Under the pieces are notes generated by a model. The model worked only from the letters and a program-made list of their open reading frames with translations, made no database searches and was not told the DNA's origin. Positions 2,618 through 40,320 of a stretch of 64,000 nt of DNA are shown piece by piece. The stretch covers positions 32,645 to 96,644 of the forward strand of contig JAXMDU010000004.1 of assembly GCA_046348645.1 (NCBI GenBank). The letters are read 5' to 3'. Source of the DNA: Alphaproteobacteria bacterium (GTDB lineage: Bacteria > Pseudomonadota > Alphaproteobacteria > JAXMDU01). How positions within the stretch are numbered: position 1 is the first letter of the stretch; each line of letters begins with the position of its first letter. Both the position numbers and the translations under genes were made by a program.

Positions 2618-2705
2618 GCTTTGGCCCTGCCCGCGACTTTGCCCTGCCTACAGCTTTGCCTTGTCTACAACTCTGCCCCGGCCGCGACGACCCGGCTTCC
2701 ACTGA

Positions 2706-6484: not shown

Positions 6485-6609
6485 ATCCGGCTGCGGTCGA
6501 ACGACATTCGCCGCCGACCCAGCCTGCCCATGCCATCTTTGGCACCGCCGTCCGGGCCGGCGGCACCGCCGTCCGAGCCGGCGAATGAGCCTTGCACAAG
6601 GGGGATTGC

Positions 6610-11504: not shown

Positions 11505-11645
11505 TGATCGCCTCGAACAACGCCCCGGCCGTCGAGATGGCGGCCAATCGGGTCGGGCAGGCAGACTAGACCAGGAGCCGTGAACCCGAGGTTAACGGAG
11601 GTTAATTGTCACAGCCCCTTCGACCCGGCAAATGATCCAATGGAC

Positions 11646-11709
11646 AGGCCATCTTATAGACAGGCCTATCACAAGATTGGCCCATCACAAGATCGGCCCG
11701 CCATCAGTA
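11646..11709. repeat. 4 tandem 16-bp units (GGCCYATCACAAGATY-like); last unit contains the stop codon of ACAD 11704-12870
   Basis: ggccatcttatagaca / ggcctatcacaagatt / ggcccatcacaagatc / ggcccgccatcagtac read directly. Confidence 0.7.
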
Positions 11710-12870
11710 CGACTTCGGCAGCCCCAGGATCCGCTCGGCGATATAGGACAGCAGAAGCGGCGGCGTCACCGGGCCAATGCGCTGGATCCAGATCTCGCGA
11801 TAATAACGCTCGACGTGGAACTCCTTGGCATAGCCCATACCCCCATAGGCAAAGATCGCCCGCTTGCAGGCCCTGAGACCCGCCTCGGCGCCCAGGAACT
11901 TGGCGGCATTGGCTTCGGCGCCGCAGGGCTTGCCCTGGTCGAACAGGCTGGCGGCCTTGAAGGTCATCAGGTTGGCGGCTTCAAGCTCGCACCAGCTTTC
12001 CGCCAATGGATGCTGGACCGCCTGATTCTTGCCGATCGGCCGGCCGAACACGATCCGCTCGTTCGCATAGGCCGAGATCTTGCGCAGCGCCGCACGGCCG
12101 ATGCCAATCGTCTCGGCCCCGACAATGATGCGTTCCGGGTTGATGCTGTCGAAGATGTAGCGGAGGCCCTTGCCTTCCTCGCCGATCAGGTCCTCTTTCG
12201 GAACCGGCATGCCATCGAAGAAGACCTGATTCGTGTCGACGGCTTCGCGGCCCATTTTCGGGATCACGCGGGCCTCGGCGTAGCGGCGATCGAAGTCCGT
12301 ATAGAACAGGCTGAGACCGTCAGCCGGCCGTTTGCACTTGTCAATTGGCGTGGTGCGGGCCAGCAGAACGATCTTGTTCGCTTCCTGGGCAGTGGTGGTC
12401 CAGATCTTCTGGCCGCTTACCACATAGTTCTTCCCGTTCCATTCCGCCCGGCACTGGGCCCGGGTGGTATCGACGCCGGCATTGGGTTCCGTCACCCCGA
12501 AACAGGCCCGATCCTTGAGGGTAATGAGCCGATTGACCCAGCGTTCGCGCTGGTCTTCGCTGCCATGCAGGATGACGGCCTGCGGGCCGAAAATGTTGAT
12601 GTGAACGGCCGAGCAGCCCGAAAGGCAGGCGCCGGTCTCGGCGATCGTCTGCATCATCAAGGCACCCTCGACGAAGCCAAGGCCCGAGCCGCCGTATCTT
12701 TCCGGCACCACGATGCCAAGCCAGCCCGCATCGGCCAGGGCCTGGCAGAAATCCACCGGAAAACGGGCATCGCGATCGACGGCCAGCCAATAGGCATCGT
12801 CGAAACGCTCGATGGTCTTCAAGACACCGTCGCGGATCGCCAATTGCTCGTCTGTAAACTCGAAATCCAT
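11704..12870 (-). CDS. acyl-CoA dehydrogenase (paralog group ending LGLPKSY)
   Basis: MDFEFTDEQLAIRD start; typical ACAD blocks (GVTEPNAGVDTT, FGRPIGKNQAVQHPLAE, YGGMGYAKEFHVERYYRE). Confidence 0.85.
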   Translation of the reverse strand: MDFEFTDEQLAIRDGVLKTIERFDDAYWLAVDRDARFPVDFCQALADAGWLGIVVPERYGGSGLGFVEGALMMQTIAETGACLSGCSAVHINIFGPQAVILHGSEDQRERWVNRLITLKDRACFGVTEPNAGVDTTRAQCRAEWNGKNYVVSGQKIWTTTAQEANKIVLLARTTPIDKCKRPADGLSLFYTDFDRRYAEARVIPKMGREAVDTNQVFFDGMPVPKEDLIGEEGKGLRYIFDSINPERIIVGAETIGIGRAALRKISAYANERIVFGRPIGKNQAVQHPLAESWCELEAANLMTFKAASLFDQGKPCGAEANAAKFLGAEAGLRACKRAIFAYGGMGYAKEFHVERYYREIWIQRIGPVTPPLLLSYIAERILGLPKSY

Positions 12871-13030
12871 GACCCTTCCCATCCTTTGGCGCGCCGGGCC
12901 TTTGGGCCGGGCAAAGATTGCTCATACGCCGGATACCGCCCAGTGAAAAGGGGGAGGCCGACGTTGTGCGGCCCCCGAAGCCGGCTAGAATGGCAACCCT
13001 TTTTACATTGGAGTCAATCCAGGAGACAGC

Positions 13031-14230
13031 ATGAGCGGGCCCCTTTCCGGTATCCGGGTTATCGATACGTGTTCCGTGTTCTATGGCCCGTTTGCAGCCC
13101 AGATCCTGGGCGATCTGGGCGCCGATGTGATCAAGGTCGAACCCCTGACCGGCGACACCTCGCGCCGGCTGGGGCGCGCCCATCACGACGACATGTCGGC
13201 CCATTTCCTGAATTTCAACCGCAACAAGCGGGCCGTGGCCCTGGACCTGACCCAGGCCGAGGGACGCGCGGTGCTGGCCAGGCTGGTCGAGAAAGCCGAC
13301 GTCTTCATGCTCAATCTCCGGCGCAAGCCGGCCGCGAAGCTTGGCATCGGCTATGCCGATATCGCCCGGGTCAACCCCAGGATCGTTTACTGTGCCTGCA
13401 TCGGCTATGGCCATCGGGGTCGCTACCGGGACCGCCCGGCCTATGACGATCTGATCCAGGGGGTGACCGGCATCGCCGCCCAGCTGGGTCGCCATCTGGG
13501 GACCGACCCGCGCTACGTTCCGACCCCGATTGCCGACAAGACCTCGGCGGTCTATGCGGCGCTTGCGGTTTCCAGCGCGCTGGTGCATCGCGCCAAGACG
13601 GGCGAGGGCCAGGAAATCGAAGTCCCGATGTTCGAGACCCTGACCGCCTATACCATGATCGATTACATCTATGGCCTGACCTTTGTGCCGCCAATCGGCG
13701 GGGCCGGCTACGAGCGCACCATGTCGCCCTACCGGCGGCCCTACAAGACCAAGGATGGCCATATCTGCGCGCTTTGCTACACCGACCGCCACTGGCAGCG
13801 ATTCTTCGTTGGCGTCGAGCGGCCCGATCTGGCCGCCGATTCACGCTTCAAGACGCTCGATCAGCGCACCGCCCATATCGACGAGCTGTATTCGACCTTC
13901 GAAAAAATCCTGGTCGCCCGCACCACCGCTGAATGGTTCGACTTCTTCGAAAAGGCGGACATCCCGGTGGCGCCGCTGCTGCGTGGCGAGGACCTGTTCG
14001 ACGATCCGCATGTCAAGGATGTCGGCCTCTTCAGCCAGGTCGATCACCCGACCGAGGGCCGTGTCTGGCAGATCAACGTGCCGCTCGATTTCGCCAAAAC
14101 CCCGGCCGGCGTCCGGCGGCAGGCGCCGAACTTCGCCGAGCACAGCGTCGAGGTGCTGCGCGAACACGGCTTCGGCGAGGCCGAAATCAACCGCCTGATC
14201 GAGGCGGGCGTGGTGGCGGCAAGGCGCTGA
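13031..14230 (+). CDS. CoA-transferase family III (CaiB/BaiF-type)
   Basis: MSGPLSGIRVIDTCSVFYGPFAAQILGDLGADVIKVE N-terminus; 399 aa. Confidence 0.85.
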   Translation: MSGPLSGIRVIDTCSVFYGPFAAQILGDLGADVIKVEPLTGDTSRRLGRAHHDDMSAHFLNFNRNKRAVALDLTQAEGRAVLARLVEKADVFMLNLRRKPAAKLGIGYADIARVNPRIVYCACIGYGHRGRYRDRPAYDDLIQGVTGIAAQLGRHLGTDPRYVPTPIADKTSAVYAALAVSSALVHRAKTGEGQEIEVPMFETLTAYTMIDYIYGLTFVPPIGGAGYERTMSPYRRPYKTKDGHICALCYTDRHWQRFFVGVERPDLAADSRFKTLDQRTAHIDELYSTFEKILVARTTAEWFDFFEKADIPVAPLLRGEDLFDDPHVKDVGLFSQVDHPTEGRVWQINVPLDFAKTPAGVRRQAPNFAEHSVEVLREHGFGEAEINRLIEAGVVAARR

Positions 14231-14333
14231 CGACCCCGCTGATCAGACGGCTTGATCCCAGAAACGCTTTGATCCCAAAACCGGCAGGGAGCGGCATCAG
14301 GCCGCCCCCTGCCTGTCGGTCCGTTGCGGCCGG

Positions 14334-15122
14334 CTACTTGCGGAAACGGCGGAAATTGGGCTTCCGCTTCTGCATGAAGGCGGACGCGCCTTCGGTCATT
14401 TCTTCACCGCCGGCCAGGCGCAACAGCACCTGCTTGGCGTGCTCCATGGCCGGCGCAAGGCTGTCCCACCAGACATTCGAGCTGATCTTGGAAAGCTCGA
14501 TATAGGCCGGGCTCTTGTCGAGGATTTCCTCAGCCCAGGCTTCGACCTCGTCAAACAGCTTCTTGTGCGGGACCACCTTGTTGATCCAGCCCATGTCGAG
14601 GGCTTCCTGGGCGGTATAGAGCCGGCAGAGATAGACGACCTCGCGCGCCTTTTTCTCGCCCACCGTCAGGGAGAAGAGATTGGTGGCGCCATAGACCGGC
14701 GACGAGCCGATGCGCGGGCCGGTCTGGCCGAACTTCGCGTGCTCGGACGCGATGGCAAGATCGGAGCAGATGACAAGCTCGTTGCCGCCGCCGACTGCGA
14801 AGCCGTTCACCGCCGCGATGATCGGCTGCGGGATGTGACGCATGAGGTTAAGCGTATAGGACGAGCCGCCGAACAGCTTGCGTCCCATGCTGACGTCGAA
14901 ATCGGCGAGATCGGCAAGATAGCCGCCCGCCGAAAAGGCCTTGTCGCCGGCGCCGGTCAGGACCACGACGCCGATCTTGCCATCATTGCCGGCATCGGCA
15001 AGCGCGTCGCCCAGCTCGGTGATCGTTTCGCCGTCGAACGCGTTATGTCGTTCCGGATGATTGATGGTGATCCGGGCGATGTGCCCCTTCTTCTTGTAGA
15101 TGATGTGCTTGAATTTCTGCAT
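14334..15122 (-). CDS. enoyl-CoA hydratase/isomerase (crotonase) family
   Basis: ARITINHPERHNAF...VLTGAGDKAFSAGG...AAVNGFAVGGGNEL; start at internal ATG (MQKFKHII) after AAGGAG. Confidence 0.8.
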   Translation of the reverse strand: MQKFKHIIYKKKGHIARITINHPERHNAFDGETITELGDALADAGNDGKIGVVVLTGAGDKAFSAGGYLADLADFDVSMGRKLFGGSSYTLNLMRHIPQPIIAAVNGFAVGGGNELVICSDLAIASEHAKFGQTGPRIGSSPVYGATNLFSLTVGEKKAREVVYLCRLYTAQEALDMGWINKVVPHKKLFDEVEAWAEEILDKSPAYIELSKISSNVWWDSLAPAMEHAKQVLLRLAGGEEMTEGASAFMQKRKPNFRRFRK

Positions 15123-15176
15123 CACAGACGCTCCTTGTTGTTCTTGCGATCTCGGTCGCCCAGGTTGCCGCACACC

Positions 15177-16313
15177 CTAAAGTGTACGGGAAATGATCTC
15201 TTTCATGATCTCGGATGTACCGCCGGCGATGCGGCCCTGGCGCACATCGACGAAGGCGCGGCCGATCGGATATTCCCACATGAAGCCGGCGCCGCCGTGA
15301 AGCTGCAGGCAATCGTCGATCTTGTCGTTCGCCGTGTCTGCGCTCCAGTACTTGATCATCGCGGCATCGACCGAATCGAGCTTGCCCTGCATCAGCAGCT
15401 CGGTGCAGCGGTCAAGCATGATCCGTGCCAGGATGCAATGCGTCTTGACCTCGGCCAGCTTGAACCGGGTGTTCTGGAACTCGAAGATCGGCCGACCAAA
15501 GGCCGTGCGGCCCTTGGTGAACTCGACCGTCCATTCGAGCGCCGCCTCCATCAGCGCGACGTTGCGGGCCGCCGCGATGATGCGTTCGCGGGTCAACTGT
15601 TCCATCAGATAGGTGAAGCCGCGCCCTTCCTCGCCCAGCAGGTTCGAGACCGGAACACGCACGTCCTGGAAGAACAGCTCCGAGGTGTCCTGGGCCTTGA
15701 AGCCGATCTTCTCGAGATTGCGGCCGCGGACGAACCCCTTGCGGGTCGCTTCGACGACAACCAGGCTGACGCCCTTGCCTTTCGCGGTGGGGTCGGTCTT
15801 GCAGGCGACGATGATGATGTCGGCGCTCTGGCCGTTCGAAATGTAGATCTTCTGCCCGTTGACGACATAGTGGTCGCCATCGCGGATCGCGCGGGTGGTG
15901 ATGTTCTGAAGATCGCTGCCGACCGAAGGCTCGGTCATCGCGATGGCGCCGATATATTCGCCGCTTGCCATCTTTGGCAGCCACGCCTTCTTCTGGGCTT
16001 CGCTTCCATAATGCAGCAGATAGGGCGCGACGATATCTGAATGAAGCGCAAAGCCCGGACCGGTGGCACCGACCCGCGTCAGTTCCTCGATCACGATCAT
16101 GCTGTGGGCGACATCGCCCCCGAGCCCGCCATATTCTTCCGGGATCGAGCAAAGCAGCATGCCGGTCGCGCCGGCCTTGAGCCACACGTCGCGGGGAACA
16201 ACGCCCGACTTTTCCCATTTCGCGTGATGCGGGACCACCTCTTGCTCGACGAAGCGGCGGACGGTCTGGCGAAAGATCTCGTGTTCCTCGCTGAACAACG
16301 TGCGCGGAATCAT
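15177..16313 (-). CDS. acyl-CoA dehydrogenase (second subfamily)
   Basis: AMTEPSVGSDLQNITTRA...GQKIYISNG...FGRPIFEFQNTRFKLAE...GGAGFMWEYPIGRAF. Confidence 0.85.
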   Translation of the reverse strand: MIPRTLFSEEHEIFRQTVRRFVEQEVVPHHAKWEKSGVVPRDVWLKAGATGMLLCSIPEEYGGLGGDVAHSMIVIEELTRVGATGPGFALHSDIVAPYLLHYGSEAQKKAWLPKMASGEYIGAIAMTEPSVGSDLQNITTRAIRDGDHYVVNGQKIYISNGQSADIIIVACKTDPTAKGKGVSLVVVEATRKGFVRGRNLEKIGFKAQDTSELFFQDVRVPVSNLLGEEGRGFTYLMEQLTRERIIAAARNVALMEAALEWTVEFTKGRTAFGRPIFEFQNTRFKLAEVKTHCILARIMLDRCTELLMQGKLDSVDAAMIKYWSADTANDKIDDCLQLHGGAGFMWEYPIGRAFVDVRQGRIAGGTSEIMKEIISRTL

Positions 16314-16410
16314 CCTGTTCTCCTGGCTGGGGCTGACGGGTGGGATCGGAAAGCGATCTTAGATCGCAGCGCCAAGCCTTGTCACCCGGCCTGCCCCGCC
16401 AAGCCGCGGT

Positions 16411-17190
16411 TCAGTCGCCAAGCGCCCCGGCGACAAAGCCGTCGACCAGGCGGGCAAAGGCGGTGGGGGCCTGATAGGGAATGAAATGCGCTGCCTTTTC
16501 CACCACCACGAACGAGGCGTTGGGCAGGGCCTCGAACACCGCCCGGCACGGGCCCGGCCCCCAGCCCCGATCCAAGCGGCCCGCCAGCACCAGGGTCGGG
16601 CAGCCGATGTCTTGCACCAGGGTTGAAATATCGTGATCGATCGACCCCAGCAGAATATTGGCATAGCTCTGGGGATCGTTCTCGGCCACGGCGGCCAGGA
16701 AGGCCCGGTAGCGATCGTCAAGCGGCAGGCCATTGAACGCGACCTCGACCGCCGCCGGCAGAACCGGACCGAGACTCGCCGCCTTGAGGACAAGGCCGGC
16801 CCGCTTGCGGATGACGTCCCCCACCCTGCCATCGGCGACCCGAAGCCCACAGGTGGACAGCACCAGGGCCGGCACGCGGCCCGGATGACGGGCGGCAAAC
16901 GTCGCGGCGACCATGGTCCCCATGGCGCAGCCGACCGGGACGACCTCGGTCACCCCGGCCGCGTCCAGAACCGCTTCGAGATCGGCCAGCTCGCGCTCGA
17001 GCGTCTGCGGCTCGGTCGCCCGGGGCGAACGCCCGGCGCCGCGGCGATCATAGACAACGATGCGGTAGCGTTCGCCCAGCAGCGCCACGGCATCGCGCCA
17101 CATGCGGCCATCGCTGCCAAGACCGTGCAGAAGGACCAGGGTCCGCCCCCGTGCATTGCCGAGAATCTGATAATGAAGATCGGTCGTCAT
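16411..17190 (-). CDS. alpha/beta-fold hydrolase
   Basis: LVLLHGLGSDGRMW, nucleophile elbow GCAMG; start at internal ATG (MTTDLHYQ). Confidence 0.7.
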   Translation of the reverse strand: MTTDLHYQILGNARGRTLVLLHGLGSDGRMWRDAVALLGERYRIVVYDRRGAGRSPRATEPQTLERELADLEAVLDAAGVTEVVPVGCAMGTMVAATFAARHPGRVPALVLSTCGLRVADGRVGDVIRKRAGLVLKAASLGPVLPAAVEVAFNGLPLDDRYRAFLAAVAENDPQSYANILLGSIDHDISTLVQDIGCPTLVLAGRLDRGWGPGPCRAVFEALPNASFVVVEKAAHFIPYQAPTAFARLVDGFVAGALGD

Positions 17191-17256
17191 GGCTCGACCA
17201 GAGTGGACCATGCCAGCAGTGGAACATGAAGGACGGCCATGCTAGGAGATTCTCCC

Positions 17257-18204
17257 ATGCAAGCGAAGCCCAATGTCCTTGTGGTCGTGAAGCCGCCCGA
17301 CAATGTCGTCGCCCGGCTCGAGCGTGATTTCACCCTGCTCAAGCTGTGGGAGCTGGGCAGCGACGAAACCGCCGCGCTGCGCCGCGTGGCCGATCGGGTC
17401 CAGGTGCTGTTCACCTTCAATCGCTATCTCACACCGGACTTTCTTGATCCCTTGCCGAATCTCAAGCTGATCTGCTGCTTCGGGGCCGGCTTCGATCGAG
17501 TGCCGATGGACTATTGCCGTCAGCGCGGCATCCGGGCGACGAATGGTCCCGACACCAACGCCGGCTGCGTTGCCGACGCGGCGATGGGACTTTTGCTTGC
17601 GACCCAGCGGCGGATTGCCGCCGGCGACCGCTTCCTGCGCCGCGGCGGCTGGCTCAAGCAGCGGCTCTATGACACGACCTCGCGCTTCTACGGGCGGCGC
17701 CTGGGCCTTTTGGGTTTCGGTTACATCAATGCCGCGGTGGCCAAGCGGGCCCGGGGCTTCGATCTCGAAATCGCCTACTGTACCCGCAACCGCCGCCCTG
17801 ACGTTGCCTATCGCTGGGAGCCCGATCTTATCGCCCTGGCCAGGTGGGCCGATTACCTGGTCGCTGCCATCCCGCTTGACGCGACGACCCGACACATCAT
17901 CAATCGTCCAGTAATCGAGGCGCTGGGCCCGAAGGGCATGTTCGTCAACGTTTCGCGCGGGCCGATTGTCGATCAGCCGGAATCATCGGCGGCCCTGCAG
18001 GACGGGCGCCGAGCAGCGCGGGGCTCGACGTGTTCGACGGCGAACTCCCATGTGCCGGCCGAGCTGATGGCGCTCGACAACGTGGTGCTGACCCCGCATG
18101 TGGGCGGCATGACCCATGAAAGCTTTGCCGACGGGGCCGAACTGCTGGCCCGCAACATCACGGCTTTCTATGCCGGTCGGCCGCTGATCACGCCGCTGCT
18201 GTGA
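17257..18204 (+). CDS. D-isomer-specific 2-hydroxyacid dehydrogenase family; internal compensating frameshift pair
   Basis: GLLGFGYINAAVAKRA NAD motif and C-terminal VVLTPHVGGMT; between about 18001 and 18056 the ORF reads RRAARGSTCSTANS while the expected AGLDVFDGE is in another frame. Confidence 0.65.
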   Translation: MQAKPNVLVVVKPPDNVVARLERDFTLLKLWELGSDETAALRRVADRVQVLFTFNRYLTPDFLDPLPNLKLICCFGAGFDRVPMDYCRQRGIRATNGPDTNAGCVADAAMGLLLATQRRIAAGDRFLRRGGWLKQRLYDTTSRFYGRRLGLLGFGYINAAVAKRARGFDLEIAYCTRNRRPDVAYRWEPDLIALARWADYLVAAIPLDATTRHIINRPVIEALGPKGMFVNVSRGPIVDQPESSAALQDGRRAARGSTCSTANSHVPAELMALDNVVLTPHVGGMTHESFADGAELLARNITAFYAGRPLITPLL

Positions 18205-19113
18205 TCAGCCGTCCTTGGGGCCAAGCTCGACGCCATTGAGCTTGCCCAACGCCTTGGCCAGCGATGCGGCCAGGTCATTGCCATAGCCCATCGAATCCGC
18301 CAGCGCATAGGCCTGGTGGATCGCCTGCGCCATGAACACCGGCGCCGTGATGCTTTCCGCCATGCGCGTGTAGCACCGAATGTCCTTTTTCGCGAGGGCA
18401 AGCTGGAAGATCTGCTGGCTTGGGCCCTTGCCAGTGATCCACGGCATGATGCGATCGAAGGTTGAACTCTGGGCGCCGCCCTGGGGAATGATCTTGTGGA
18501 CCATATCGAGGTCGATGCCGGCCTTGGCCGCCACCGCCATCGTTTCACAGACCAGCGCGCCGATCCCGAGGGCAAGGAAGTTATTCACCATCTTGAACCG
18601 ATGCGCCGTCCCCACCGCGCCGATATGGAAAATCGTTTCGGTGAAGGTCGAAAGAACAGGCGTGATGCGCTTCAGCATTGCCGCGTCGGTGCCGACAAAG
18701 ATGTTGAGCGTGCCGGCCTCGGCATGGGTCGGGTTGCGCTGCAGGGGGGCATCGACATAGTGGATGCCGCGCGCCTTCAGCGCCTCGATGGTCCGGCCGA
18801 TCTCGTTTGGATCGACGGTGGTCGAATCGATGACGATCAGGCCGGGCTTCGCCCCCTCGACGATGCCGCCCGGGCCCAGGCAATGACGCTCGACCTCGAC
18901 CTGCGACGGCAGGCACAGGAAGACGATGTCGGATTGGCCGGCGATCTCGGCCGCCGATCGGCCCTCGGTCGCCCCCCGGGACACAAGATCGTCGATCGGC
19001 TTCCTGTTGCGGTGTCCCATGACCATCAGGGGATAGCCCTTCATGACGATGTTCTTCGCCATGCCGTGCCCCATCAGCCCGGCCCCCAAGAATCCAATCC
19101 GTTCCTTCGCCAT
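18205..19113 (-). CDS. NAD-binding 3-hydroxyisobutyrate dehydrogenase-like (6-phosphogluconate DH N-terminal domain family)
   Basis: Start MAKERIGFLGAGLMGHGMAKN after AAGGAAG; the longer ORF 18205-19479 N-extension looks spurious. Confidence 0.75.
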   Translation of the reverse strand: MAKERIGFLGAGLMGHGMAKNIVMKGYPLMVMGHRNRKPIDDLVSRGATEGRSAAEIAGQSDIVFLCLPSQVEVERHCLGPGGIVEGAKPGLIVIDSTTVDPNEIGRTIEALKARGIHYVDAPLQRNPTHAEAGTLNIFVGTDAAMLKRITPVLSTFTETIFHIGAVGTAHRFKMVNNFLALGIGALVCETMAVAAKAGIDLDMVHKIIPQGGAQSSTFDRIMPWITGKGPSQQIFQLALAKKDIRCYTRMAESITAPVFMAQAIHQAYALADSMGYGNDLAASLAKALGKLNGVELGPKDG

Positions 19114-19133
19114 GGTCGCTTCCTTTTGTCCTT

Positions 19134-20273
19134 TTATAGGCCTTGAACAATGCGCATGAATTCTTCGGTATCGGCGCCCAGATCGGGCGGGGCCCGGGTG
19201 ATGCCGGGACGCGTGCCGTTGAAGCTGAGCGGATTCAGAATGACCTCGAGATCGGGCCGGCCGGGGACCTTGGCCGAAACCTCGCTCGCCGCCAGTTCCG
19301 GATGGGTGCAGATTTCGCGCACGTCGTGCAGCGGCCCGGCCGGCACACCCGCCGCTTCGATCCTGGCGACCCAGTTGTCGCACGTATCGGTCTTGAACAC
19401 CGCTTCGATCAGCGGCAGCAGCAGGTGCTTGTTCTCGATCCGCAGGCCGGTATTGCAGAAGCGCGGATCGTCGGCCCATTCCAGATGGCCCAGAGCCTCG
19501 GCGAATTTGCGGAACAGCCGGTCGTTCCCGGGCGCCACCACGATCAGACGGTCCTGGGTGGGAAAGGCCTGATAGGGCACGACGATGCCCGTACCCGAGC
19601 CCCAGCGACCCGGCTCCTCGCCCGAGGTGCGGTATTGGCCGATCGGGAAATTCATCAGGTTCATCGCCACCTCGAACAGCGAGGTTTCAATGTGGCAGCC
19701 CTGGCCGGTGCGATCACGCTCGCGCAAGGCCTGCAGGACGCCGATCAGGATCCACTGCGCGGTGGCGAAATCGATCAGGGCAATGCCCACCCGCGAGGGC
19801 GGCCGGTCCGGCTCGCCGGTGATCGCCATGATCCCCGAGAAGCCTTCCATCAGAAAGTCGTAGCCGGGCTTGGTGGCGTTGGCGCCCTTCTTGCTGAAGG
19901 CGCGCACCGAAGCGCAGATCAGGCCGGGCTTCTCGCGCCGCAGATCATCGGGGTCGAGGCCAAGCTTGCCCACCGTCCCCGGCCGCAGGTTCTGGATGAA
20001 CACGTCGGCCTTTTTCAAGAGGAACGTGCGCAGCAGTTTCGATTGGGCCGGGTCCTTGAGATCCAGAACGACCGAGCGCTTGTTGCGATTGACGGCGTGG
20101 AACGGCGCCGCCGATCCATAGGGCCGGGGATTGCCCATGCGGCGTGTGCTGTCGCCACCATCCGGGTTTTCAACCTTGTAGACCGTGGCGCCAAAGTCGC
20201 CGAGCGTCTGCGCCGAAAAGGGGCCGGCAATGGCCTCGCCCATTTCGACGACCGTGATTCCCGATAGCGGCAT
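19134..20273 (-). CDS. CoA-transferase family III (CaiB/BaiF-type)
   Basis: MPLSGITVVEMGEAIAGPFSAQTLGDFGATVYKVENP; start at internal ATG by analogy with paralogs. Confidence 0.85.
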   Translation of the reverse strand: MPLSGITVVEMGEAIAGPFSAQTLGDFGATVYKVENPDGGDSTRRMGNPRPYGSAAPFHAVNRNKRSVVLDLKDPAQSKLLRTFLLKKADVFIQNLRPGTVGKLGLDPDDLRREKPGLICASVRAFSKKGANATKPGYDFLMEGFSGIMAITGEPDRPPSRVGIALIDFATAQWILIGVLQALRERDRTGQGCHIETSLFEVAMNLMNFPIGQYRTSGEEPGRWGSGTGIVVPYQAFPTQDRLIVVAPGNDRLFRKFAEALGHLEWADDPRFCNTGLRIENKHLLLPLIEAVFKTDTCDNWVARIEAAGVPAGPLHDVREICTHPELAASEVSAKVPGRPDLEVILNPLSFNGTRPGITRAPPDLGADTEEFMRIVQGL

Positions 20274-20350
20274 TCCTGCTTGTTCCCCTTTCCTCCGGAT
20301 CGTTGTCACGGGTCCGTCGCGCCGACGCTTCAGCCGTTCTCTCTGGCTCG

Positions 20351-21121
20351 TCAGGTGCGAACGCCGATCTTGCTTCGCCAGCGGCGCATGCCGGCAAGCC
20401 AGCGGTCGTAATCAGCCAGCTTGCGCCGCGCCATGTCGAGCACTTCGGGATGGGGAAGGATCAGGAACTTTTCCGCCTCGATCCCCGCCATCACCGAATC
20501 CGCCACCGCCGCGGGTTCGATTATGGCCTTGTCGGCGCCGCTCAGAAAGCTTTGATTGGCCGCCACCATCGGCGTGCGCACGGTCTGCGAGGCGATCACG
20601 GAAACCCGCACGCCCTGATCGCCATAGGCAATGGCAAGATATTCGGCAAAGGCGATGGCCGCGCGCTTGGTCACCATGTAGGCCGCCGCGTGGACCTGCG
20701 CCAAAAGGCCGGCCGCTGACGTGCTCAGGATGAAATAGCCGTCGCGCCGCGCCGCCATCAGCGGCATCACGGCCCGCGCCGCGTAAACATGCGCCATGAC
20801 ATGAAGGTTCCAGTTGAGCGTCCATTCGGCATCCGGCGCCGCCTCGGTGCCGGGCTGCAGAATGCCGACATTGGACACATAAAGGCCGATCGGTCCCGCC
20901 GCTTCGGCGCGGGCGACCAGGGCCTTCACGTCCTCTTCGCGACTGACGTCGCACGGCACGGCAATGCCCCCGATCCGCGCCGCCACCGCATCAAGATCGC
21001 TTCGGGTGCGCGCCGCCAGGAATACTTCCTTCGCCCCTTCGGCCTTGAACCGCTCGGCCAGTGCAAGCCCGATGCCCGACGTCGCACCGGTCACCACCAC
21101 CACCTTGCCTGCGATCTTCAT
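20351..21121 (-). CDS. short-chain dehydrogenase/reductase (SDR)
   Basis: GKVVVVTGATSGIGLALA Rossmann motif; YMVTK (YxxxK) active site. Confidence 0.8.
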   Translation of the reverse strand: MKIAGKVVVVTGATSGIGLALAERFKAEGAKEVFLAARTRSDLDAVAARIGGIAVPCDVSREEDVKALVARAEAAGPIGLYVSNVGILQPGTEAAPDAEWTLNWNLHVMAHVYAARAVMPLMAARRDGYFILSTSAAGLLAQVHAAAYMVTKRAAIAFAEYLAIAYGDQGVRVSVIASQTVRTPMVAANQSFLSGADKAIIEPAAVADSVMAGIEAEKFLILPHPEVLDMARRKLADYDRWLAGMRRWRSKIGVRT

Positions 21122-21154
21122 GCCACGTCCCTCTGCCTGGCCGCCGCGGCCGGC

Positions 21155-22291
21155 TCAGTCCTTCATCAGGCGGCGAAAATCGGCGGTCCCTTCGCCATAA
21201 TCGGGCGGCACCAGCTTGACCGGGCAAATCTGGCCGTCAAAGTGAAGCGGGTTGCGCATGACCCGGACATCCGGGCGGCCCGGCAGCGGGACCGAGATGC
21301 CGCTGGCCTGGAATTCCCCCGATCCGACCACATCGGCAATGCTGTTCACCGGCCCGGCCGGAACGCCCGCGGCCGTGAAGCGGCGCACCCATTCATCGCA
21401 GACGTCGGACTTCAAGGCGCCGACGATCAGCTCGTAGAGAATCTTGCGATGGTCCCAGCGCGACTGCATCGTGGTGAAGCGCTGATCATCCGCCCATTCG
21501 GCATGGCCCAGCACGGTGCAGAACGCCCGGAACAGGCGCTCGTTCCCGGGCGCCACCGCGACGGGGCGGTCGGCGGTGGGAAACGCCTGATAGGGGAAGA
21601 AATAGGCGATGCCCGATCCCCACCGACCTGGCTCGCGGCCCGAGGTCTGATAATTGCCGACCGGAACGCCCAGCAGGTTCATCATCACCTCGAACAGTGA
21701 CGTCTCGATGTGGCAGCCGCACCCGCTGTGGTCGCGGTCGCGCAGCGCTTTCAACACGCCGATGACCAGCCACTGCGCGGTCGAGTAGTCGGAAATCGCC
21801 ATGCCCACCCGGCAGGGCTCGCCGTCGTTCGGGCCGGTAACCGCCAACATGCCGGCGTAAGCCTGCATCATGAAATCATAGCCGGGTTTGTCGCGATTCT
21901 CGCCCTCCTTGCTGAAGGCCCGCACCGAACAGCAGATCAGGCGCGGGTTCTCGCGCCGAAGCGCGTCCGGATCGAGGCCGTACTTCGCCAGCGTGCCCGG
22001 GCGCATGTTCTGGATGAATACATCGGCCTTTTCGAGAATGAAACGCCGCAGCAACGCTGCGTCCTCGGGCTTGGTAAAATCCAGAACCACCGAGCGCTTG
22101 TTGCGGTTCACGGCATGAAACGTGAAGGCCGATCCATAGGGCTGGCCGCCGCCCAGATGGCGGGTGGAATCGCCGCCACGCGGATTTTCGATCTTGTAGA
22201 CGGTCGCCCCGAAATCGCCAAGGACCATGGCGGAAAACGGTCCGGCGATGTTCTCGCCGATCTCGACGACGGTGATCCCGGCGAGCGGCAT
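21155..22291 (-). CDS. CoA-transferase family III (CaiB/BaiF-type)
   Basis: MPLAGITVVEIGENIAGPFSAMVLGDFGATVYKIENP. Confidence 0.85.
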   Translation of the reverse strand: MPLAGITVVEIGENIAGPFSAMVLGDFGATVYKIENPRGGDSTRHLGGGQPYGSAFTFHAVNRNKRSVVLDFTKPEDAALLRRFILEKADVFIQNMRPGTLAKYGLDPDALRRENPRLICCSVRAFSKEGENRDKPGYDFMMQAYAGMLAVTGPNDGEPCRVGMAISDYSTAQWLVIGVLKALRDRDHSGCGCHIETSLFEVMMNLLGVPVGNYQTSGREPGRWGSGIAYFFPYQAFPTADRPVAVAPGNERLFRAFCTVLGHAEWADDQRFTTMQSRWDHRKILYELIVGALKSDVCDEWVRRFTAAGVPAGPVNSIADVVGSGEFQASGISVPLPGRPDVRVMRNPLHFDGQICPVKLVPPDYGEGTADFRRLMKD

Positions 22292-22305
22292 GCAGGTCTC
22301 CCGAC

Positions 22306-23445
22306 TTATCTGGATGCGATCTTATCGAACTCGGCGTTGAATTCGCCAAGCTCGGGCGCGCCCCGCGTGACGCCAGGGCGTTTGCCGTCGAAGCTGAGCG
22401 GCGACAGGATCAATTCGAGATCCGGGCGCCCCGGTGCGGTGCCGATAATGCCGCTGGCCTTGGTCTCGGGATCGACCGCGACCTCGGCCAGATCATGCAC
22501 AGGGCCGCACGGGATCCCGGCCTTGTCGAGGGCATCGACCCAATGCTTGCACGTCCTGGTGCGCAGAACCCCTTCGATCAAGTCTTGCAGGGCATCGGCG
22601 TTACGGTCGCGGTCGGCCGGTTCGGCGAAGCGCGGATCGCGCGCCCATTCCGGATGGCCCAGCGCATCCGCCAGCTTGGTAAACAGCCGGTTGTTCGCGC
22701 AGGCAATGACAACCAGGCCGTCGCTGGCCGCAAAGGGCTGCAAGGGAACGGTTCCCGGCAGACGCCCGCCGGCCCGCTTGGCAAGCTCGCCAGTCGACCG
22801 ATACTGCCCGTATGGATTGGCAATCATCGACATCGCCACTTCGTAAAGCGACGTATTGATCGTTGCGCCCTGGCCGGTGCGCGTGCGCTCGTAAAGCGCC
22901 GACACGATCCCGATCGCGCTAAACACCCCGGTCATGGTGTCGATCGCGGACACACCAATCCTGGACGGCGGCCGATCCGATTCGCCGGTCAAGCTCAGCA
23001 GGCCGCAATAACCCTGCATCAGGATGTCATAGCCGCCCTTGTGTTCATTCGGCCCGCCCTTGGTGAAGGCGCCAAGCGAGCAATGAACGAGTGACGGCTT
23101 CAAGGCCCGAAGCCCCGCCGCGCCAAGGCCCAGGCGGTCAATCACGCCGGTGCGCAGGTTCTGTACCAGCACATCGGCCCGCTCGACGATAAATGTCTTC
23201 AACCGCGCCACCTGGGCCGGATCCTTGAGATCGATGGCGAGCGAGCGCTTGTTCCGGTTTTGCATGTGGAACATCGAACTGGCGCCGTATTGTCGCGGTC
23301 CGCCGATGCGCCGCGTGCTGTCGCCGCCAGCGGCGGGGTTTTCGATCTTGATCACGGTGGCGCCAAGATCAGCCAGGATCTGGCCGCATTGCGGCCCGGC
23401 GATGTTCTCGGTGATTTCGATGACGGTGATGCCGGTCAATTGCAT
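22306..23445 (-). CDS. CoA-transferase family III (CaiB/BaiF-type)
   Basis: MQLTGITVIEITENIAGPQCGQILADLGATVIKIENP. Confidence 0.85.
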   Translation of the reverse strand: MQLTGITVIEITENIAGPQCGQILADLGATVIKIENPAAGGDSTRRIGGPRQYGASSMFHMQNRNKRSLAIDLKDPAQVARLKTFIVERADVLVQNLRTGVIDRLGLGAAGLRALKPSLVHCSLGAFTKGGPNEHKGGYDILMQGYCGLLSLTGESDRPPSRIGVSAIDTMTGVFSAIGIVSALYERTRTGQGATINTSLYEVAMSMIANPYGQYRSTGELAKRAGGRLPGTVPLQPFAASDGLVVIACANNRLFTKLADALGHPEWARDPRFAEPADRDRNADALQDLIEGVLRTRTCKHWVDALDKAGIPCGPVHDLAEVAVDPETKASGIIGTAPGRPDLELILSPLSFDGKRPGVTRGAPELGEFNAEFDKIASR

Positions 23446-23463
23446 GGGTTCTGCTCGATCCGT

Positions 23464-24612
23464 TCAGGCCTTGGGACGACTGCCAAGCGTGGCGAAAAAT
23501 TCGGCATTGAATTCGCCCAGGTCGGGCGGATTGTGCCGGATTGGCGGACGATCGCCGTTGAAGCTGAGCGGAAAGCCAACCACTTCAATGTCGTCGCGTC
23601 CCGGCAGCTTCTTGAAGATTTGGCTGTACTCGACCTCGGGATTGCTGGTCGCCTGCGCCAGGTCATGGACCGGCCCACAGGGGACGTCGAACGCGTCGAG
23701 CACCGATTGCCAGTGGGCGCGCGTGTTGCTGGACAGAACCTCCTGGATGGCCCCCACCACCAGGTCCTTGTTCTCGAAGCGCGCGTTCAGGGTGGCGAAA
23801 CGCGGATCGGTCTTCCATTCCGGCTTGCCCAGCGCATCGGCCACCCGCCGGAAAAGACCGTCGTTGGCCGTGGCGATGACAAGCTGACCGTCCTTGGTAT
23901 CGAAGGGCTGCAGCGGCACAAAGCCCGGAAGCTGCGCGCCGGCGCGAACCGGGATCTTGCCCGAGAATTTGTACTGGGCCAGCGACGCGCCCATCATGAA
24001 CATCGACGTCTCGAACAGGGAATTGTCGACCGTCGCGCCTTCGCCCGTCACCGATCGCTTGGCCAGCGCCGCCAGGATCCCGATCGCGTTCCACAGCGAC
24101 GCGGTGATATCGATTGACGATATGCCGATCCTGACCGGCGGCCGGTCGGGATAGCCGGTCAGGCTGAGAAGCCCCGAATACGCCTGGAGGATCAGGTCAT
24201 AGCCGCCCTTGTGGGCGTTCGGGCCACCCTTGGTGAAGGCGCCCACGTTGCAGTAGACCAGACTGGGTTTTACCGCCCGCAGGCTGGCGGCATCGAGGCC
24301 GATCTTTTCGACCGTGCCGGGCCGCAGGTTTTGCAGAACGACATCGGCCCGTTCGACAATGAAGCGCTTCAGAAGCGCGACATTGGCCGGATCCTTGAGG
24401 TCGAGGGCCAGCGAGCGCTTGTTGCGATTGTTGGCGTGGAACATGGCGGCCGAGCCATGACGCTTCGGCGCCCCCATGTGCCGCGACGCATCGCCACCGC
24501 TCGGATTCTCGACCTTGATCACGGTCATGCCAAGATCTGCGAGAACCTGGCCAGACAACGGGCCGGCGACGTTCTCGCCGATCTCGACCAGGGTCATCTT
24601 GCTGAGGTCCAC
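23464..24612 (-). CDS. CoA-transferase family III (CaiB/BaiF-type)
   Basis: MDLSKMTLVEIGENVAGPLSGQVLADLGMTVIKVENP. Confidence 0.85.
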   Translation of the reverse strand: MDLSKMTLVEIGENVAGPLSGQVLADLGMTVIKVENPSGGDASRHMGAPKRHGSAAMFHANNRNKRSLALDLKDPANVALLKRFIVERADVVLQNLRPGTVEKIGLDAASLRAVKPSLVYCNVGAFTKGGPNAHKGGYDLILQAYSGLLSLTGYPDRPPVRIGISSIDITASLWNAIGILAALAKRSVTGEGATVDNSLFETSMFMMGASLAQYKFSGKIPVRAGAQLPGFVPLQPFDTKDGQLVIATANDGLFRRVADALGKPEWKTDPRFATLNARFENKDLVVGAIQEVLSSNTRAHWQSVLDAFDVPCGPVHDLAQATSNPEVEYSQIFKKLPGRDDIEVVGFPLSFNGDRPPIRHNPPDLGEFNAEFFATLGSRPKA

Positions 24613-24650
24613 GCCTTTGTCTCCTCGCTTGGTTTTGGCGATGCGCCCGG

Positions 24651-24714
24651 CCTAATCCGATTCTGGCCTAATCCGATTTCGGCCCAACCCGATTCTGGCC
24701 TAATACGATTTCGG
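24651..24714. repeat. 4 tandem 16-bp units (CCTAATCCGATTYYGG-like); last unit contains stop and final codons of ACAD 24700-25872
   Basis: cctaatccgattctgg / cctaatccgatttcgg / cccaacccgattctgg / cctaatacgatttcgg. Confidence 0.75.
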
Positions 24715-25872
24715 CAGCCCGAGAACCCGCTCGGCAATGTAGGAGAGGACCATCGGCCCCGTGATCGGCGCGATGCGATAGATCTGCATCTCGCGAAAAT
24801 AGCGCTCGACGTGGAATTCCTTGGCATAGCCCATGCCACCCATCGAGAAGATCGCGCGTTTGCAGGCCTCGAACCCGGCTTCGGCCGCGTAGAACCGGGC
24901 CGCATTGGCCTCTGGCCCGCATTCCTTGCCCTTGTCGTAGTACGAACAGGCCCGATAGGTCAGCAGATCGGCCGCCTCAAGCTTGCACCAGCTTTCCGCC
25001 AGCGGATGCTGAATCGCCTGGTTCTTGCCGATCGGGCGGTCGAAGACGATCCGCTCCTTGGCGTATTCCGTGGCCCGCTTAAGCGCCATGCGGCCCATCG
25101 AGACGCTCTCGGCCGCCACCAGCAGGCGATCGGGGATGAGGCCGTCGAGCAGGTACTTGAAGCCCTTGCCTTCCTCACCAATCCGGTCTTCCTCGGGAAT
25201 GGGCAGGCCATCGTAGAAGACCTGGTTCGAATCGAGCGCGTGACGGCCCATCTTCTCGATTTCGCGCACCTCGACATAGCGGCGATCGAAATCGGTGAAG
25301 AACAAGGTCAGACCGTCGATCGGACGCTTGGTCTTTTCGATCGGCGTGGTCCGGGTCAGCAGCAGGACCTTGGTCGCGACCTGGGCGGTCGATGTCCAGA
25401 TCTTCTGGCCATGGACGATGTAGGCCTTTCTTTTCGGATCGTATTCGGCCCGGGTCTGGATGCGGGTCGTGTCGAGGCCGGCATTGGGTTCGGTGATGCC
25501 GAAGCACGGCTTCACATCGCCCTTGATGATGGGGGTCAGCATCCGCTGCCGCTGTTCCGGCGTGCCATGCTTGACCACCGGATGCGGCCCGAAGACATTG
25601 ATGTGGATTGCCGTGCACGCCGAAAGGCCGCCACCCGATTCGGCAATCGCCTGCATCATCAGGCAGCCTTCGGTGATGCCAAGCCCCGCGCCGCCCAGGT
25701 CGGGCGGCATCATGATCCCGATCCAGCCCGCATCGGCAATGGCACGATGAAAATCGTGCGGGAAGCCGCCTTCCTGATCCTTTTTCAGCCAATAGGCGTC
25801 GTCGTATGGCGCGCAGACCTTGGCCACGGCCTCGCGGATGGCAAGCTGATCCTCGGTAAATGAATGATCCAT
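24700..25872 (-). CDS. acyl-CoA dehydrogenase (LGLPKSY paralog group)
   Basis: MDHSFTEDQLAIRE...FGITEPNAGLDTT...YAKEFHVERYFRE...LGLPKSY. Confidence 0.85.
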   Translation of the reverse strand: MDHSFTEDQLAIREAVAKVCAPYDDAYWLKKDQEGGFPHDFHRAIADAGWIGIMMPPDLGGAGLGITEGCLMMQAIAESGGGLSACTAIHINVFGPHPVVKHGTPEQRQRMLTPIIKGDVKPCFGITEPNAGLDTTRIQTRAEYDPKRKAYIVHGQKIWTSTAQVATKVLLLTRTTPIEKTKRPIDGLTLFFTDFDRRYVEVREIEKMGRHALDSNQVFYDGLPIPEEDRIGEEGKGFKYLLDGLIPDRLLVAAESVSMGRMALKRATEYAKERIVFDRPIGKNQAIQHPLAESWCKLEAADLLTYRACSYYDKGKECGPEANAARFYAAEAGFEACKRAIFSMGGMGYAKEFHVERYFREMQIYRIAPITGPMVLSYIAERVLGLPKSY

Positions 25873-25899
25873 CGTCTGATCCGGTAGGGGGTGACTGAC

Positions 25900-25925
25900 T
25901 TAGTATGACTTTCTTAGTATGACTT
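25900..25925. repeat. 2 tandem copies of TTAGTATGACTT (14-bp period) plus a degenerate third; second copy starts at the stop codon of ACAD 25914-27086
   Basis: gtgactgac ttagtatgactt tc ttagtatgactt gggcagg. Confidence 0.65.
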
Positions 25926-27086
25926 GGGCAGGCCAAGCGCACGTTCGGCGATGTAGGACAGCACCAGCGGCGGCGGGATCGGCCCGATGCGCAGGACCTG
26001 CACCTCGCGGAAATAGCGCTCGACGTGGAATTCCTTGGCATAGCCCATGCCGCCCATCGAGAAGATCGCCTTTTGGCAGGCATCGAAGCCCGCTTCGGCG
26101 CCCAGCCACTTGGCAGCGTTCGATTCCGGCCCGCAGGGCTTGCCCTGGTCGTAAAGGGTGGCGGCCTTGTAGACCATCAATTCCGCCGCTTCGAGCTTGC
26201 ACCACGCCTCGGCCAGGGGATGCTGCACCGCCTGGTTCTTGCCGATCGGGCGGTCGAACACGATCCGCTCCTTGGCATACTGGGCGGCGCGTTTCAGGGC
26301 GGCGCGCCCCATGCCCACCGATTCGGCCCCCACCATGAACCGTTCCGGATTCATGCTGTCCAGGATGTAATAGAAGCCCCGGCCTTCTTCGCCGATCAGG
26401 TCGTCCTTCGAAACCGGCATCCCGTCATAGAAGACCTGATTGGAATCGACCGCGTGGCGGCCCATTTTCGGGATTTCCCGCACCTCGGCGTAGTCCCGGT
26501 TCAGATCCGTGTAGAACAGGCTGATGCCGTCCTGGGGACGCTTGGTCTTGTCGACCGGCGTGGTGCGGGCCAGCAGCATGACCTTGTTTGCCTGCTGGCC
26601 GGTCGAGGTCCAGATCTTCTGGCCCGAGACGATGTATTTCTGGCGGGCCGGGTCCCATTCCGCCTTGCAGGTCAGCCGGGTGGTATCGATCCCGGCGCCG
26701 GGCTCGGTCACCCCGAAACAGGCCCGGTCCTTGAGGGTAATAAGCCGGTTCACCCACCGCTCGCGCTGCTCTTCCGAGCCGTGCTTCACCATCGCCATCG
26801 GCCCGAACATGTTCATGTGGATGGCTGAACAGGCGGCCAGGCAACCGCCCGACTGGGCGATGGTCTGCATCACCAGGGTGCCCTCGACCCAGCCCAGGCC
26901 GGCGCCGCCGTATTTCTCGGGCATGACCACCCCAAGCCAGCCGGCATCCGCCATGGCGCGCGCGAAATCGTGGGGGAATTCGTGCTTGTTGTCCTTGTCC
27001 AACCAGTAGGCGTCGTCAAACTTCTCGCAGACCTTGTTGATCGCATCCCGGATCGCAAGCTGTTCGTCGCTGAACTCGAAATCCAT
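25914..27086 (-). CDS. acyl-CoA dehydrogenase (LGLPKSY paralog group)
   Basis: Start MDFEFSDEQLAIRD (internal ATG of ORF 25914-27140, RBS GGAGCAGG). Confidence 0.85.
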   Translation of the reverse strand: MDFEFSDEQLAIRDAINKVCEKFDDAYWLDKDNKHEFPHDFARAMADAGWLGVVMPEKYGGAGLGWVEGTLVMQTIAQSGGCLAACSAIHMNMFGPMAMVKHGSEEQRERWVNRLITLKDRACFGVTEPGAGIDTTRLTCKAEWDPARQKYIVSGQKIWTSTGQQANKVMLLARTTPVDKTKRPQDGISLFYTDLNRDYAEVREIPKMGRHAVDSNQVFYDGMPVSKDDLIGEEGRGFYYILDSMNPERFMVGAESVGMGRAALKRAAQYAKERIVFDRPIGKNQAVQHPLAEAWCKLEAAELMVYKAATLYDQGKPCGPESNAAKWLGAEAGFDACQKAIFSMGGMGYAKEFHVERYFREVQVLRIGPIPPPLVLSYIAERALGLPKSY

Positions 27087-28530: not shown

Positions 28531-28585
28531 GCCGAAAATCGGGGGCCAAAAATCGGGGCCAAAAATCGAGGGCCGAAAAACAGGA
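28531..28585. repeat. 4 tandem units of about 14 bp (GCCAAAAATCGGGG-like) immediately after the CoA-transferase stop
   Basis: gccgaaaatcggggg / ccaaaaatcgggg / ccaaaaatcgaggg / ccgaaaaacagga. Confidence 0.65.
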
Positions 28586-29789: not shown

Positions 29790-29890
29790 GGCAAGACATC
29801 ATAGCGCCCGGGCCATTGCAGCAACGGCCGATCCATTGACCGGCACAAACAAGGCGGCGCCAGCGGTGCCGCCTTGTCCCTTTGTCCAGA

Positions 29891-29932
29891 CTGCATTGCT
29901 GGCACTGCATTGCTGGCGCTGCATTGCCGGTC
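29891..29932. repeat. 3 tandem 14-bp units CTGCATTGCTGGCN
   Basis: ctgcattgctggca / ctgcattgctggcg / ctgcattgccggtc, downstream of SBP gene 28743-29789. Confidence 0.7.
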
Positions 29933-31091: not shown

Positions 31092-31154
31092 GAAAGTAAG
31101 CTGATCGGGGGCCGGGCCGGCTGCGACCGGCTGGCCCTGTTCGAGCCCGATGAC

Positions 31155-31200: not shown

Positions 31201-31407
31201 GTCCCCCTGGTTTTGTCTCCCCAGAACCCTGGCCAGAACCCTGGGATCTGGCCTTGCCATGCCAGGGCTTGATCGGCAGGGTTTGCGGGAAAAGGGCGCG
31301 GCACGGTAGATTGTTGCCAGCCGCGACCGTGGACCGCCCGCGGGGATCAAGGCGGTATAATAGCGGGCGCAGAAGCCGCCCGCCGATTCAACAGAGGAGG
31401 TTTACGC

Positions 31408-35603: not shown

Positions 35604-35636
35604 CCGGCTTCCGCTGACGCCCGGCAGAACCGGGCG

Positions 35637-40073: not shown

Positions 40074-40320
40074 CAGGCTGGCCCGTTGGCAGGCGACCTG
40101 AGCGCAAGCATCGCTGTCGGCGGATTTTGCATCGGCCGGGATCGCCGCCCGGCCTCGCTCGCCCCGACAAATATCATTTTATTTCAACAGCTTGATTGAC
40201 AACCGGCGGGTGGCACGACGGGCCGGCAAGGTTCGGTGCGGCATTTTTCCCTGTCGAGAATCTTTACACTTGCCGGCGCCGGACCTCGCCCTATCCCAGC
40301 AAGCCGCTGGAAAACAACAA

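Follow-up and report, generated by a model that had tools for sequence, protein, structure and literature searches.

Intergenic variable-number tandem repeats (VNTRs), the minisatellite loci used for multiple-locus VNTR analysis (MLVA) typing of bacteria such as Burkholderia pseudomallei (PMC1853098) and Yersinia pestis (PMC3689786), and the repeats of the Borg elements of Methanoperedens, about half of which are intergenic or have their first unit in a gene end (PMC9879509), are the described systems closest to the short tandem repeats that we report here. We analyzed a 64,000-nucleotide stretch of an Alphaproteobacteria bacterium (GTDB lineage JAXMDU01; GenBank assembly GCA_046348645.1, contig JAXMDU010000004.1, positions 32,645 to 96,644), which we call the window, in which such repeats lie at or near the 3' ends of acyl-CoA dehydrogenase (ACAD) genes, at the ends of other genes, and in spacers. 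The repeats are real, derived from local sequence, recent, variable in copy number among relatives, not specific to ACAD genes, and in excess over those of other genomes. They are probably young, locus-specific tandem duplications that were copied from local sequence by replication or repair errors and survived where the encoded protein was left unchanged.

Like VNTRs, the arrays of the window consist of head-to-tail, locus-specific units in non-coding DNA, differ in copy number among close relatives, and are presumed to result from replication or repair errors. They differ from VNTRs in being mostly two-copy, which is the earliest stage, in being dense (~1 per 5 kb), with half of them anchored on a stop codon, and in showing no within-population length variation among the contigs of three sequencing runs. 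The arrays behave like nascent VNTRs. With the Borg repeats they share many locus-unique, recent, near-perfect repeats made from local sequence, at a density that is genome-specific. However, Borg repeats are archaeal, A-rich, usually multi-copy, often located in open reading frames (ORFs), where the unit length is a multiple of three, and commonly flanked by partial repeats, whereas those of the window lie on a bacterial chromosome, mostly have two copies, are mixed in unit composition, and include no recent in-frame repeat within genes.

Mycobacterial interspersed repetitive units (MIRUs) form one dispersed, probably mobile family and contain a small ORF whose translation is coupled to that of the following gene (summarized in PMC12548453). 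Both MIRUs and the arrays of the window are short tandem units in operon spacers that stand in register with neighboring stop and start codons, but each unit in the window is locus-unique, and no ATG-initiated bridging ORF was found in the ACAD2 and ACAD3 spacers. Folding predictions indicated that the units do not self-fold and that the arrays form no hairpins. With no dispersed family, no bridging ORF, and no self-folding unit, we rejected a dispersed repeat resembling MIRUs, repetitive extragenic palindromic (REP) elements, or miniature inverted-repeat transposable elements (MITEs). Most of the literature searches turned up no account of duplications anchored on stop codons in bacteria.

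Repeats were called with Tandem Repeats Finder (TRF; period 10-40, score >=45) and compared with third-order Markov shuffles. In addition, a sensitive scan tested the stop of each of 51 genes in a curated gene map for an adjacent stop-containing duplicate at a cut-off of P<1e-4, with coding positions as controls. The four ACAD genes (ACAD1-4) all lie on the reverse strand, with stops at 11704, 24700, 25914, and 53584, and all encode proteins that end in ...LGLPKSY. An earlier note on this DNA had described a terminal, stop-containing unit followed by further copies at the first three of these genes, and this description fits ACAD2, fits ACAD3 with one extra copy only, and fits ACAD1 loosely. 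The ACAD2 unit GCCGAAATCGTATTAG comprises the final 13 coding nt plus TAG (gene end CTG CCG AAA TCG TAT TAG), and TRF reported the array both as period 16 x 3.9 (score 89) and as period 32 x 2.1 (score 115). At ACAD3, the gene end AAG TCA TAC TAA G is followed by AAAGTCATACTAAG (TRF 14 x 1.9, 100% matches; stop scan P=4e-7). The ACAD1 array (TRF 11663-11699, 16 x 2.3, score 60; lag-16 autocorrelation 0.51) begins 4 nt past the TGA stop, and the stop-containing segment matches its unit at only 11 of 16 positions.

The degenerate 12-bp array that had been noted at the fourth paralog has a real periodicity, with a lag-12 autocorrelation of 0.54 over the 83-nt ACAD4 spacer (P=4e-4; TRF 12 x 3.2, 69% matches, score 41), but it excludes the stop. 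It fills the spacer up to a MaoC-like hydratase gene (53045-53500, reverse strand), whose ribosome-binding site is formed by the last units. Unit sequences had been said to differ between loci, and a search of the window agreed: allowing up to 2 mismatches, each unit occurs at its own locus and nowhere else in the window.

Stop-region duplication is not specific to ACAD genes. Arrays that the earlier note had missed lie at four non-ACAD stops (28530, 29789, 31091, and 35603), which end a family-III CoA-transferase gene (27310-28530), DctP-1, DctP-2 (30027-31091), and a DUF1194 gene (34689-35603). The first base of the CoA-transferase array is the base directly after the TGA, the DctP-1 unit terminates at the stop codon, and the CTGAC of the second DUF1194 copy is the foot of a bidirectional terminator hairpin in the predicted fold. 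A further, weaker match at the stop of a zinc-type alcohol dehydrogenase gene could, taken alone, be due to chance. About one in seven gene ends in the window carries a duplication scar, and ACADs account for four of the ~51 gene ends. The tie to ACAD paralogs that the note had drawn does not hold, given the four non-ACAD genes and the LPKSY-type ACAD ends at background loci, of which only 2 of 154 reached P<1e-4 and none reached P<1e-5. Other arrays lie in spacers away from stops. The TGA within the unit at 41164 was rejected as a gene stop because an ORF check found no real ORF that ends there.

Table 1. ACAD genes, stop-proximal arrays, and spacer arrays of the window (window coordinates; details give units in order, TRF results, stop-scan P values, and matching Logan contigs)
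Feature	Coordinates	Strand	Details
ACAD1 gene	11704..12882	-	TGA stop; protein ends in ...LGLPKSY
ACAD2 gene	24700..25872	-	390 aa; Pfam Acyl-CoA_dh N, M, C domains; identical to a protein of an NCBI Alphaproteobacteria MAG
ACAD3 gene	25914..27086	-	390 aa; identical to a protein of the same MAG
ACAD4 gene	53584..54756	-	identical to a protein of the same MAG
ACAD2 terminal array	24652..24715	-	four 16-nt units: GCCGAAATCGTATTAG, GCCAGAATCGGGTTGG, GCCGAAATCGGATTAG, GCCAGAATCGGATTAG
ACAD3 terminal duplication	25899..25925	-	AAGTCATACTAAG x 2, period 14, TAA stop inside; in ACAD3-ACAD2 spacer
ACAD1 downstream array	11630..11699	-	16-nt units GGGCCGATCTTGTGAT, GGGCCAATCTTGTGAT and two degenerate copies
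ACAD4 spacer array	53501..53574	-	degenerate 12-nt, GCCAGGGAACAC-like, ~6 units; stop outside array
Family-III CoA-transferase array	28531..28579	+	14-nt GCCAAAAATCGGGG x 3.6; TRF score 70; identical in Logan L173
DctP-1 stop duplication	29775..29804	+	GTCAAGACCTCTTAG then GGCAAGACATCATAG, 12/15 matches; stop scan P=2.8e-5; identical in Logan L167
DctP-2 stop duplication	31079..31104	+	GAAGGTAAGCTGA then GAAAGTAAGCTGA; TRF 13 x 2.0; P=1.4e-6; identical in Logan L167
DUF1194 stop duplication	35591..35618	+	CGGCTTCCGCTGAC x 2, perfect; TRF 14 x 2.0, 100%; P=1e-8; identical in Logan L174
Zinc-type alcohol dehydrogenase stop (weak candidate)	40062..40093	+	CTGACCCGCTAACAGG then CTGGCCCGTTGGCAGG, 12/16 matches; stop scan P=8.5e-5
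Spacer array	29890..29927		ACTGCATTGCTGGC x 2.7; TRF score 69; just beyond T-tract of DctP-1 terminator; identical in Logan L167
Spacer array	31221..31244		CCAGAACCCTGG x 2, perfect (TRF); just beyond DctP-2 terminator (31152-31192)
Spacer array	41164..41195		CCGGCCTTCTCTGACC x 2, perfect; TRF score 64; just beyond PEP-CTERM gene terminator
17-nt array x 3.5	2619..2678	-	TRF score 62; 27 nt downstream of folE remnant stop
21-nt duplication	6541..6583	+	TRF score 79; 56 nt past tRNA-Gly and 8 nt before gene 6592

The number of arrays exceeds what chance and other genomes would lead one to expect. TRF called 16 arrays in the window compared to 1.5 in the shuffled sequences, and the stop scan flagged 7 of the 51 genes compared to 0.8 expected from the coding-position controls. 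We compared the window with a background of 117 homologous loci of other Proteobacteria (1.9 Mb, ~1,520 genes), in which the ACAD homologues are 56-68% identical to ACAD2 among the matches listed for an ACAD2 query against genome and metagenome contigs. Significant stop-scan matches were found at 13 of 1523 background genes (P=1.4e-6 relative to 7/51 in the window), and repeats that cover the stop at 6 of 1526 compared to 4 of 52 in the window (Fisher P=2e-4), which makes stop-region duplication ~16-20x commoner in the window than in other Proteobacteria. Non-coding repeats as a whole are ~7-fold denser (12 in the 64-kb window compared to 52 in the 1.9-Mb background), while coding repeats are equally dense in both.

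The same scar occurs, isolated, in other Proteobacteria, as in L026 (16835-16865), where GTTGATCGTCTCTAG is present twice at a stop; an ACAD gene in L112 carries ACCCAAGTCTTATTGA then AGCAAAATCGTATTGA at ~2197-2228. The window therefore stands apart from other genomes in the frequency of these scars, not in their kind.

The arrays were looked for in independent assemblies, and they are present unchanged in Logan contigs of three sequencing runs. Contigs of SRR26348421 match the window without a difference over 26234-29009, 29711-31797, and 32592-35961, which together cover five arrays, and all four copies at ACAD2 recur unchanged in contigs from SRR26348421, SRR22840552, and SRR22840555. In all three runs the Logan contigs (L175-L177) break within the conserved ACAD 3' coding block (ATGCCAAGGAATTCCACGTCGAGCGCTAT, window ~24826); this block is common to the paralogues, so a repeat shared by paralogues confuses short-read assembly at that point.

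The earlier note had called for a comparison of copy number among strains, and we made one with three syntenic contigs that were found by protein search, namely L161, a Joint Genome Institute (JGI) contig with ~93% nucleotide identity to the window, and L162 and L163, each with ~85%. ACAD2 has one copy of the unit in L162, two in L161 (GCCGAAATCGTACTAG then GCGAAATCGTATCAG), and four in the window. The extra 14 nt at the ACAD3 stop is present in neither L161 nor L162, the CoA-transferase array and the DctP-1 stop duplication are not in L162, and L163 lacks both the DctP-2 duplicate and the array at 31221. Because the copies are absent or fewer in relatives, they are derived; they were gained singly, during a period of 15-40% synonymous-site divergence, and turnover is continuing.

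L162 has a hairpin (CCCCGCG-GGAC-GCGCGGGG, L162 5943-5988) immediately downstream of its ACAD2 stop, at the position that the tandem repeat occupies in L161 and the window. The DUF1194 protein of L163 (stop region at 3198-3345) has the tail ...MDMPLGIDPR instead of the ...LDFNSGGGFR of the window, and its stop lies within a repeat of its own (CGGTAAGGCGAG...CGGTAAGGCGAG); this private repeat and the different tail show that the same gene end was remodelled independently in two lineages. Both relatives also have a few private 13-nt repeats located 25-30 nt downstream of stops. Two further candidates from these comparisons were set aside, as an apparent 17-nt duplication in L164 reflects a contig that switches to a paralogue and a 17/18-nt "repeat" in an AMP-ligase gene shows no indel relative to L163.

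To account for these observations we infer an interplay of mutation and purifying selection, with either slippage or fill-in joining as the molecular route. Replication or repair errors in this lineage would copy 12-17 bp (in one case 21 bp) of local sequence in tandem. A duplication inside a gene would shift the frame or add residues and be lost, whereas a unit that carries the whole stop would be kept, since translation would still stop within its first copy, after the same residue, and would not reach the extra copies; a duplication in a spacer would be harmless unless it hit a signal. Once two copies were present, the array could grow further, as ACAD2 may have done from one to two to four copies, and ACAD genes would not be targeted as such. 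No recent frame-breaking duplication is present within any intact gene, and 4 of 14 non-coding periods are divisible by 3, close to the one-third share expected by chance. If a unit need only contain the stop, 10-17% of repeats are predicted to touch one, and the background agrees, as 10 of its 52 non-coding repeats are at a stop or close to one. Under the proposed recurrent slipped-strand duplication at gene termini, the recurrence and independence of the events are borne out by the locus-specific units, the copy differences in relatives, and the ~16-20x excess; slipped strands are only one possible route, as most two-copy junctions have 0-1 nt of microhomology.

Several regularities weigh against this interpretation. 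Non-coding repeats lie at a stop or <=4 nt from it in 6 of 13 cases, whereas uniform placement would give 1.7 (P=0.003), and placement confined to each array's own spacer 3.2 (P=0.02). In addition, at ACAD2 and in all four clean two-copy cases the unit runs only 0-1 nt past the stop, a pattern with a uniform-phase chance of ~1e-4 by simple arithmetic, although it was spotted post hoc; in the background stop-scan matches, by comparison, unit ends are spread over 0-12 nt after the stop. Unlike the products of classic slippage, most two-copy arrays stop at exactly 2.0 copies and have only 0-1 nt of microhomology at the junction. The 55 kb of coding DNA showed no recent in-frame duplication, where a uniform process might have left a few; 9 of the 14 arrays sit in 24-42 kb; and the length of the ACAD2 array does not vary among the contigs of the three runs. 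Moreover, the analysis covered no more than 64 kb of the source genome and ~38 kb from close relatives. Copying by generic replication or repair errors leaves the stop-edge unit ends and the lack of microhomology at most junctions without explanation, and the regularities in phase, microhomology, T-tract position, and clustering all come from few events.

A number of more specific causes were tried and rejected. Hairpin-stalled slippage is not a general cause, as a hairpin abuts only 2 of the 8 stop-proximal arrays. The narrow 12-17 nt size class is not a mechanistic clue, because its lower bound is set by the TRF score threshold and background periods are similar. Inspection of the units showed that a shared boundary motif, a GANTC or GGCC site, a CsrA-like GGA site, and gene conversion between paralogues are each inconsistent across loci. 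A strand or replication bias is not consistent either, as the affected genes lie on both strands while GC skew is negative over most of the window. Lastly, the duplicated stops resemble fail-safe tandem stops in that a second stop follows a few codons after the first, but only 2 of 5 (periods 16, 14, 15, 13, and 14) are in frame, namely DctP-1 and, via its fourth copy, ACAD2, which is the chance proportion. One study of fail-safe tandem stops reportedly gives no evidence that bacteria select for them.

A different mutational route is a less probable source of the arrays, one in which staggered breaks are filled in and joined, either by a process of the non-homologous end joining (NHEJ) type or after abortive nicking by a transposase or integrase, or in which a process linked to the ends of translated or transcribed units, rather than slippage, creates the copies. 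The exact 2.0 copies of the two-copy arrays, their 0-1 nt of microhomology, and a possible single filler base at ACAD3 would all suit such joining, as would unit borders at the edge of the stop codon, the three arrays that begin just after terminator T-tracts, and the clustering of arrays in one 18-kb region. However, the ACAD2 junction, unlike those of seven other arrays with 0-1 nt, has the microhomology GCCG(G); units vary in length between 12 and 21 nt, whereas a single transposase makes target-site duplications of one fixed length; the copies have no element or remnant of one beside or between them, and the relatives have none either; and the sample is small. For transposon target-site duplication in particular, the periods of 12 to 21 nt, the abutting copies, and the empty sites without an element in relatives led us to reject it.

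It is also conceivable, though unlikely, that the lineage has a process that makes microhomology-independent 12-17 bp duplications at the 3' edge of stops or past terminator T-tracts, that is, a hotspot coupled to termination. Possible causes of such a hotspot include untranslated nascent RNA, R-loops, polymerase conflicts, and a lineage-specific repair defect. To our knowledge, no termination-coupled mutation hotspot has been described in bacteria.

Selection for spacing is an equally doubtful alternative. A terminating ribosome covers roughly 13-16 nt of mRNA downstream of the stop, so an insert of 13-16 nt between the stop and a downstream hairpin or ribosome-binding site could protect termination or re-initiation. 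This would account both for the unit size and for the unit ending 0-1 nt after the stop, and it suits DUF1194, whose pre-duplication stop lay in a strong bidirectional terminator stem and now lies 14 nt upstream. It perhaps suits DctP-2, where a hairpin begins ~7 nt past the array, and it is consistent with the L162 hairpin that directly follows the ACAD2 stop where the window has repeats. Nevertheless, a hairpin follows only two of the eight stop-proximal arrays, and the other loci do not fit; the x4 and x3.6 arrays of ACAD2 and the CoA-transferase gene exceed any spacing need; like arrays lie away from stops (29890, 31221, 41164, and 2619); and the arrays are not conserved among relatives.

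The conserved 3' untranslated region (UTR) element that the earlier note suggested is very improbable, and so is any other regulatory element peculiar to ACAD genes, for example an RNA motif or a site of direct repeats bound by a regulator. The four paralogues of the window do carry arrays at the same relative position. However, the units are unrelated between loci, orthologous spacers lack the arrays or differ, in other genomes 152 of 154 ACAD homologues have no trace at P<1e-4, and non-ACAD arrays exist; an Rfam scan of the window at gathering thresholds matched only a tRNA and a SAM-alpha riboswitch, both away from the arrays. Least credible of all is that the arrays are an assembly artefact or chance similarity, since, although the source is a metagenome-assembled genome and the ACAD4 array, taken by itself with its score of 41, comes close to the TRF shuffle background, the arrays are identical in Logan assemblies of three runs, the JGI contig has the two-copy version, TRF repeats far outnumber those in shuffles (16 and 1.5), and the ACAD4 periodicity has P=4e-4.

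All proteins of the window that were compared are identical to those of a 253-kb contig of an NCBI metagenome-assembled Alphaproteobacteria bacterium. The region from 11700 to 38900 in the window (G+C ~64%) is a dense cluster of catabolic paralogues, with four ACADs, at least six family-III CoA-transferases, three tandem DctP TRAP binding proteins, and two AMP-forming ligases. Elsewhere in the window, near-identical direct repeats of 288 nt (43931-44218 and 48098-48386) flank a 3.9-kb insert of low G+C (54-56%). The insert contains a gene (44345-47974, reverse strand) for a protein of 1209 aa with helicase (AAA_11/AAA_12), PLD-nuclease, and Top1 zinc-ribbon domains, whose best PADLOC matches are Mokosh MkoA and MkoC. 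Because the 288-nt repeat holds the 3' ends of two convergent genes, the insert has the appearance of a defence islet whose integration at gene ends copied those ends again, on a large scale. This resembles the stop-region arrays in that an integrating element re-creates the stop region and leaves the gene intact, but it differs in that the copies are 288 bp long and parted by the 3.9-kb islet, as expected of site-specific integration rather than tandem copying.

Near the start of the window, folE (GTP cyclohydrolase I; 2706-3600, reverse strand) is split over three frames, with Pfam profile positions 29-65 and 72-177 in different frames, and is either a pseudogene or a sequence with indel errors. 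An 11-nt "repeat" in folE (3183-3205) was rejected as the cause of the frameshift because its removal leaves the frame unrestored. An alphaproteobacterial S-adenosylmethionine (SAM) riboswitch (5184-5262, reverse strand) lies upstream of gene 3923-5158, and a tRNA-Gly(CCC) gene (6411-6484, forward strand) is followed 56 nt downstream by the perfect-type 21-nt duplication.

The arrays are ordinary in kind, being scars of tandem duplication, and unusual in their density. A tempting misreading is thereby corrected, as the repeats are not a signal of one enzyme family. They offer instead a natural illustration of how selection shapes the survival of insertions, in which the protein is not affected by a duplication that includes the stop. 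With about one in seven gene ends affected, many two-copy arrays, and 1-, 2-, and 4-copy states among relatives, this lineage may be suited to studying the birth of tandem repeats. Should the stop-edge phasing and the absence of microhomology prove general across the genome, they would indicate a so far unrecognised connection of termination with DNA instability.

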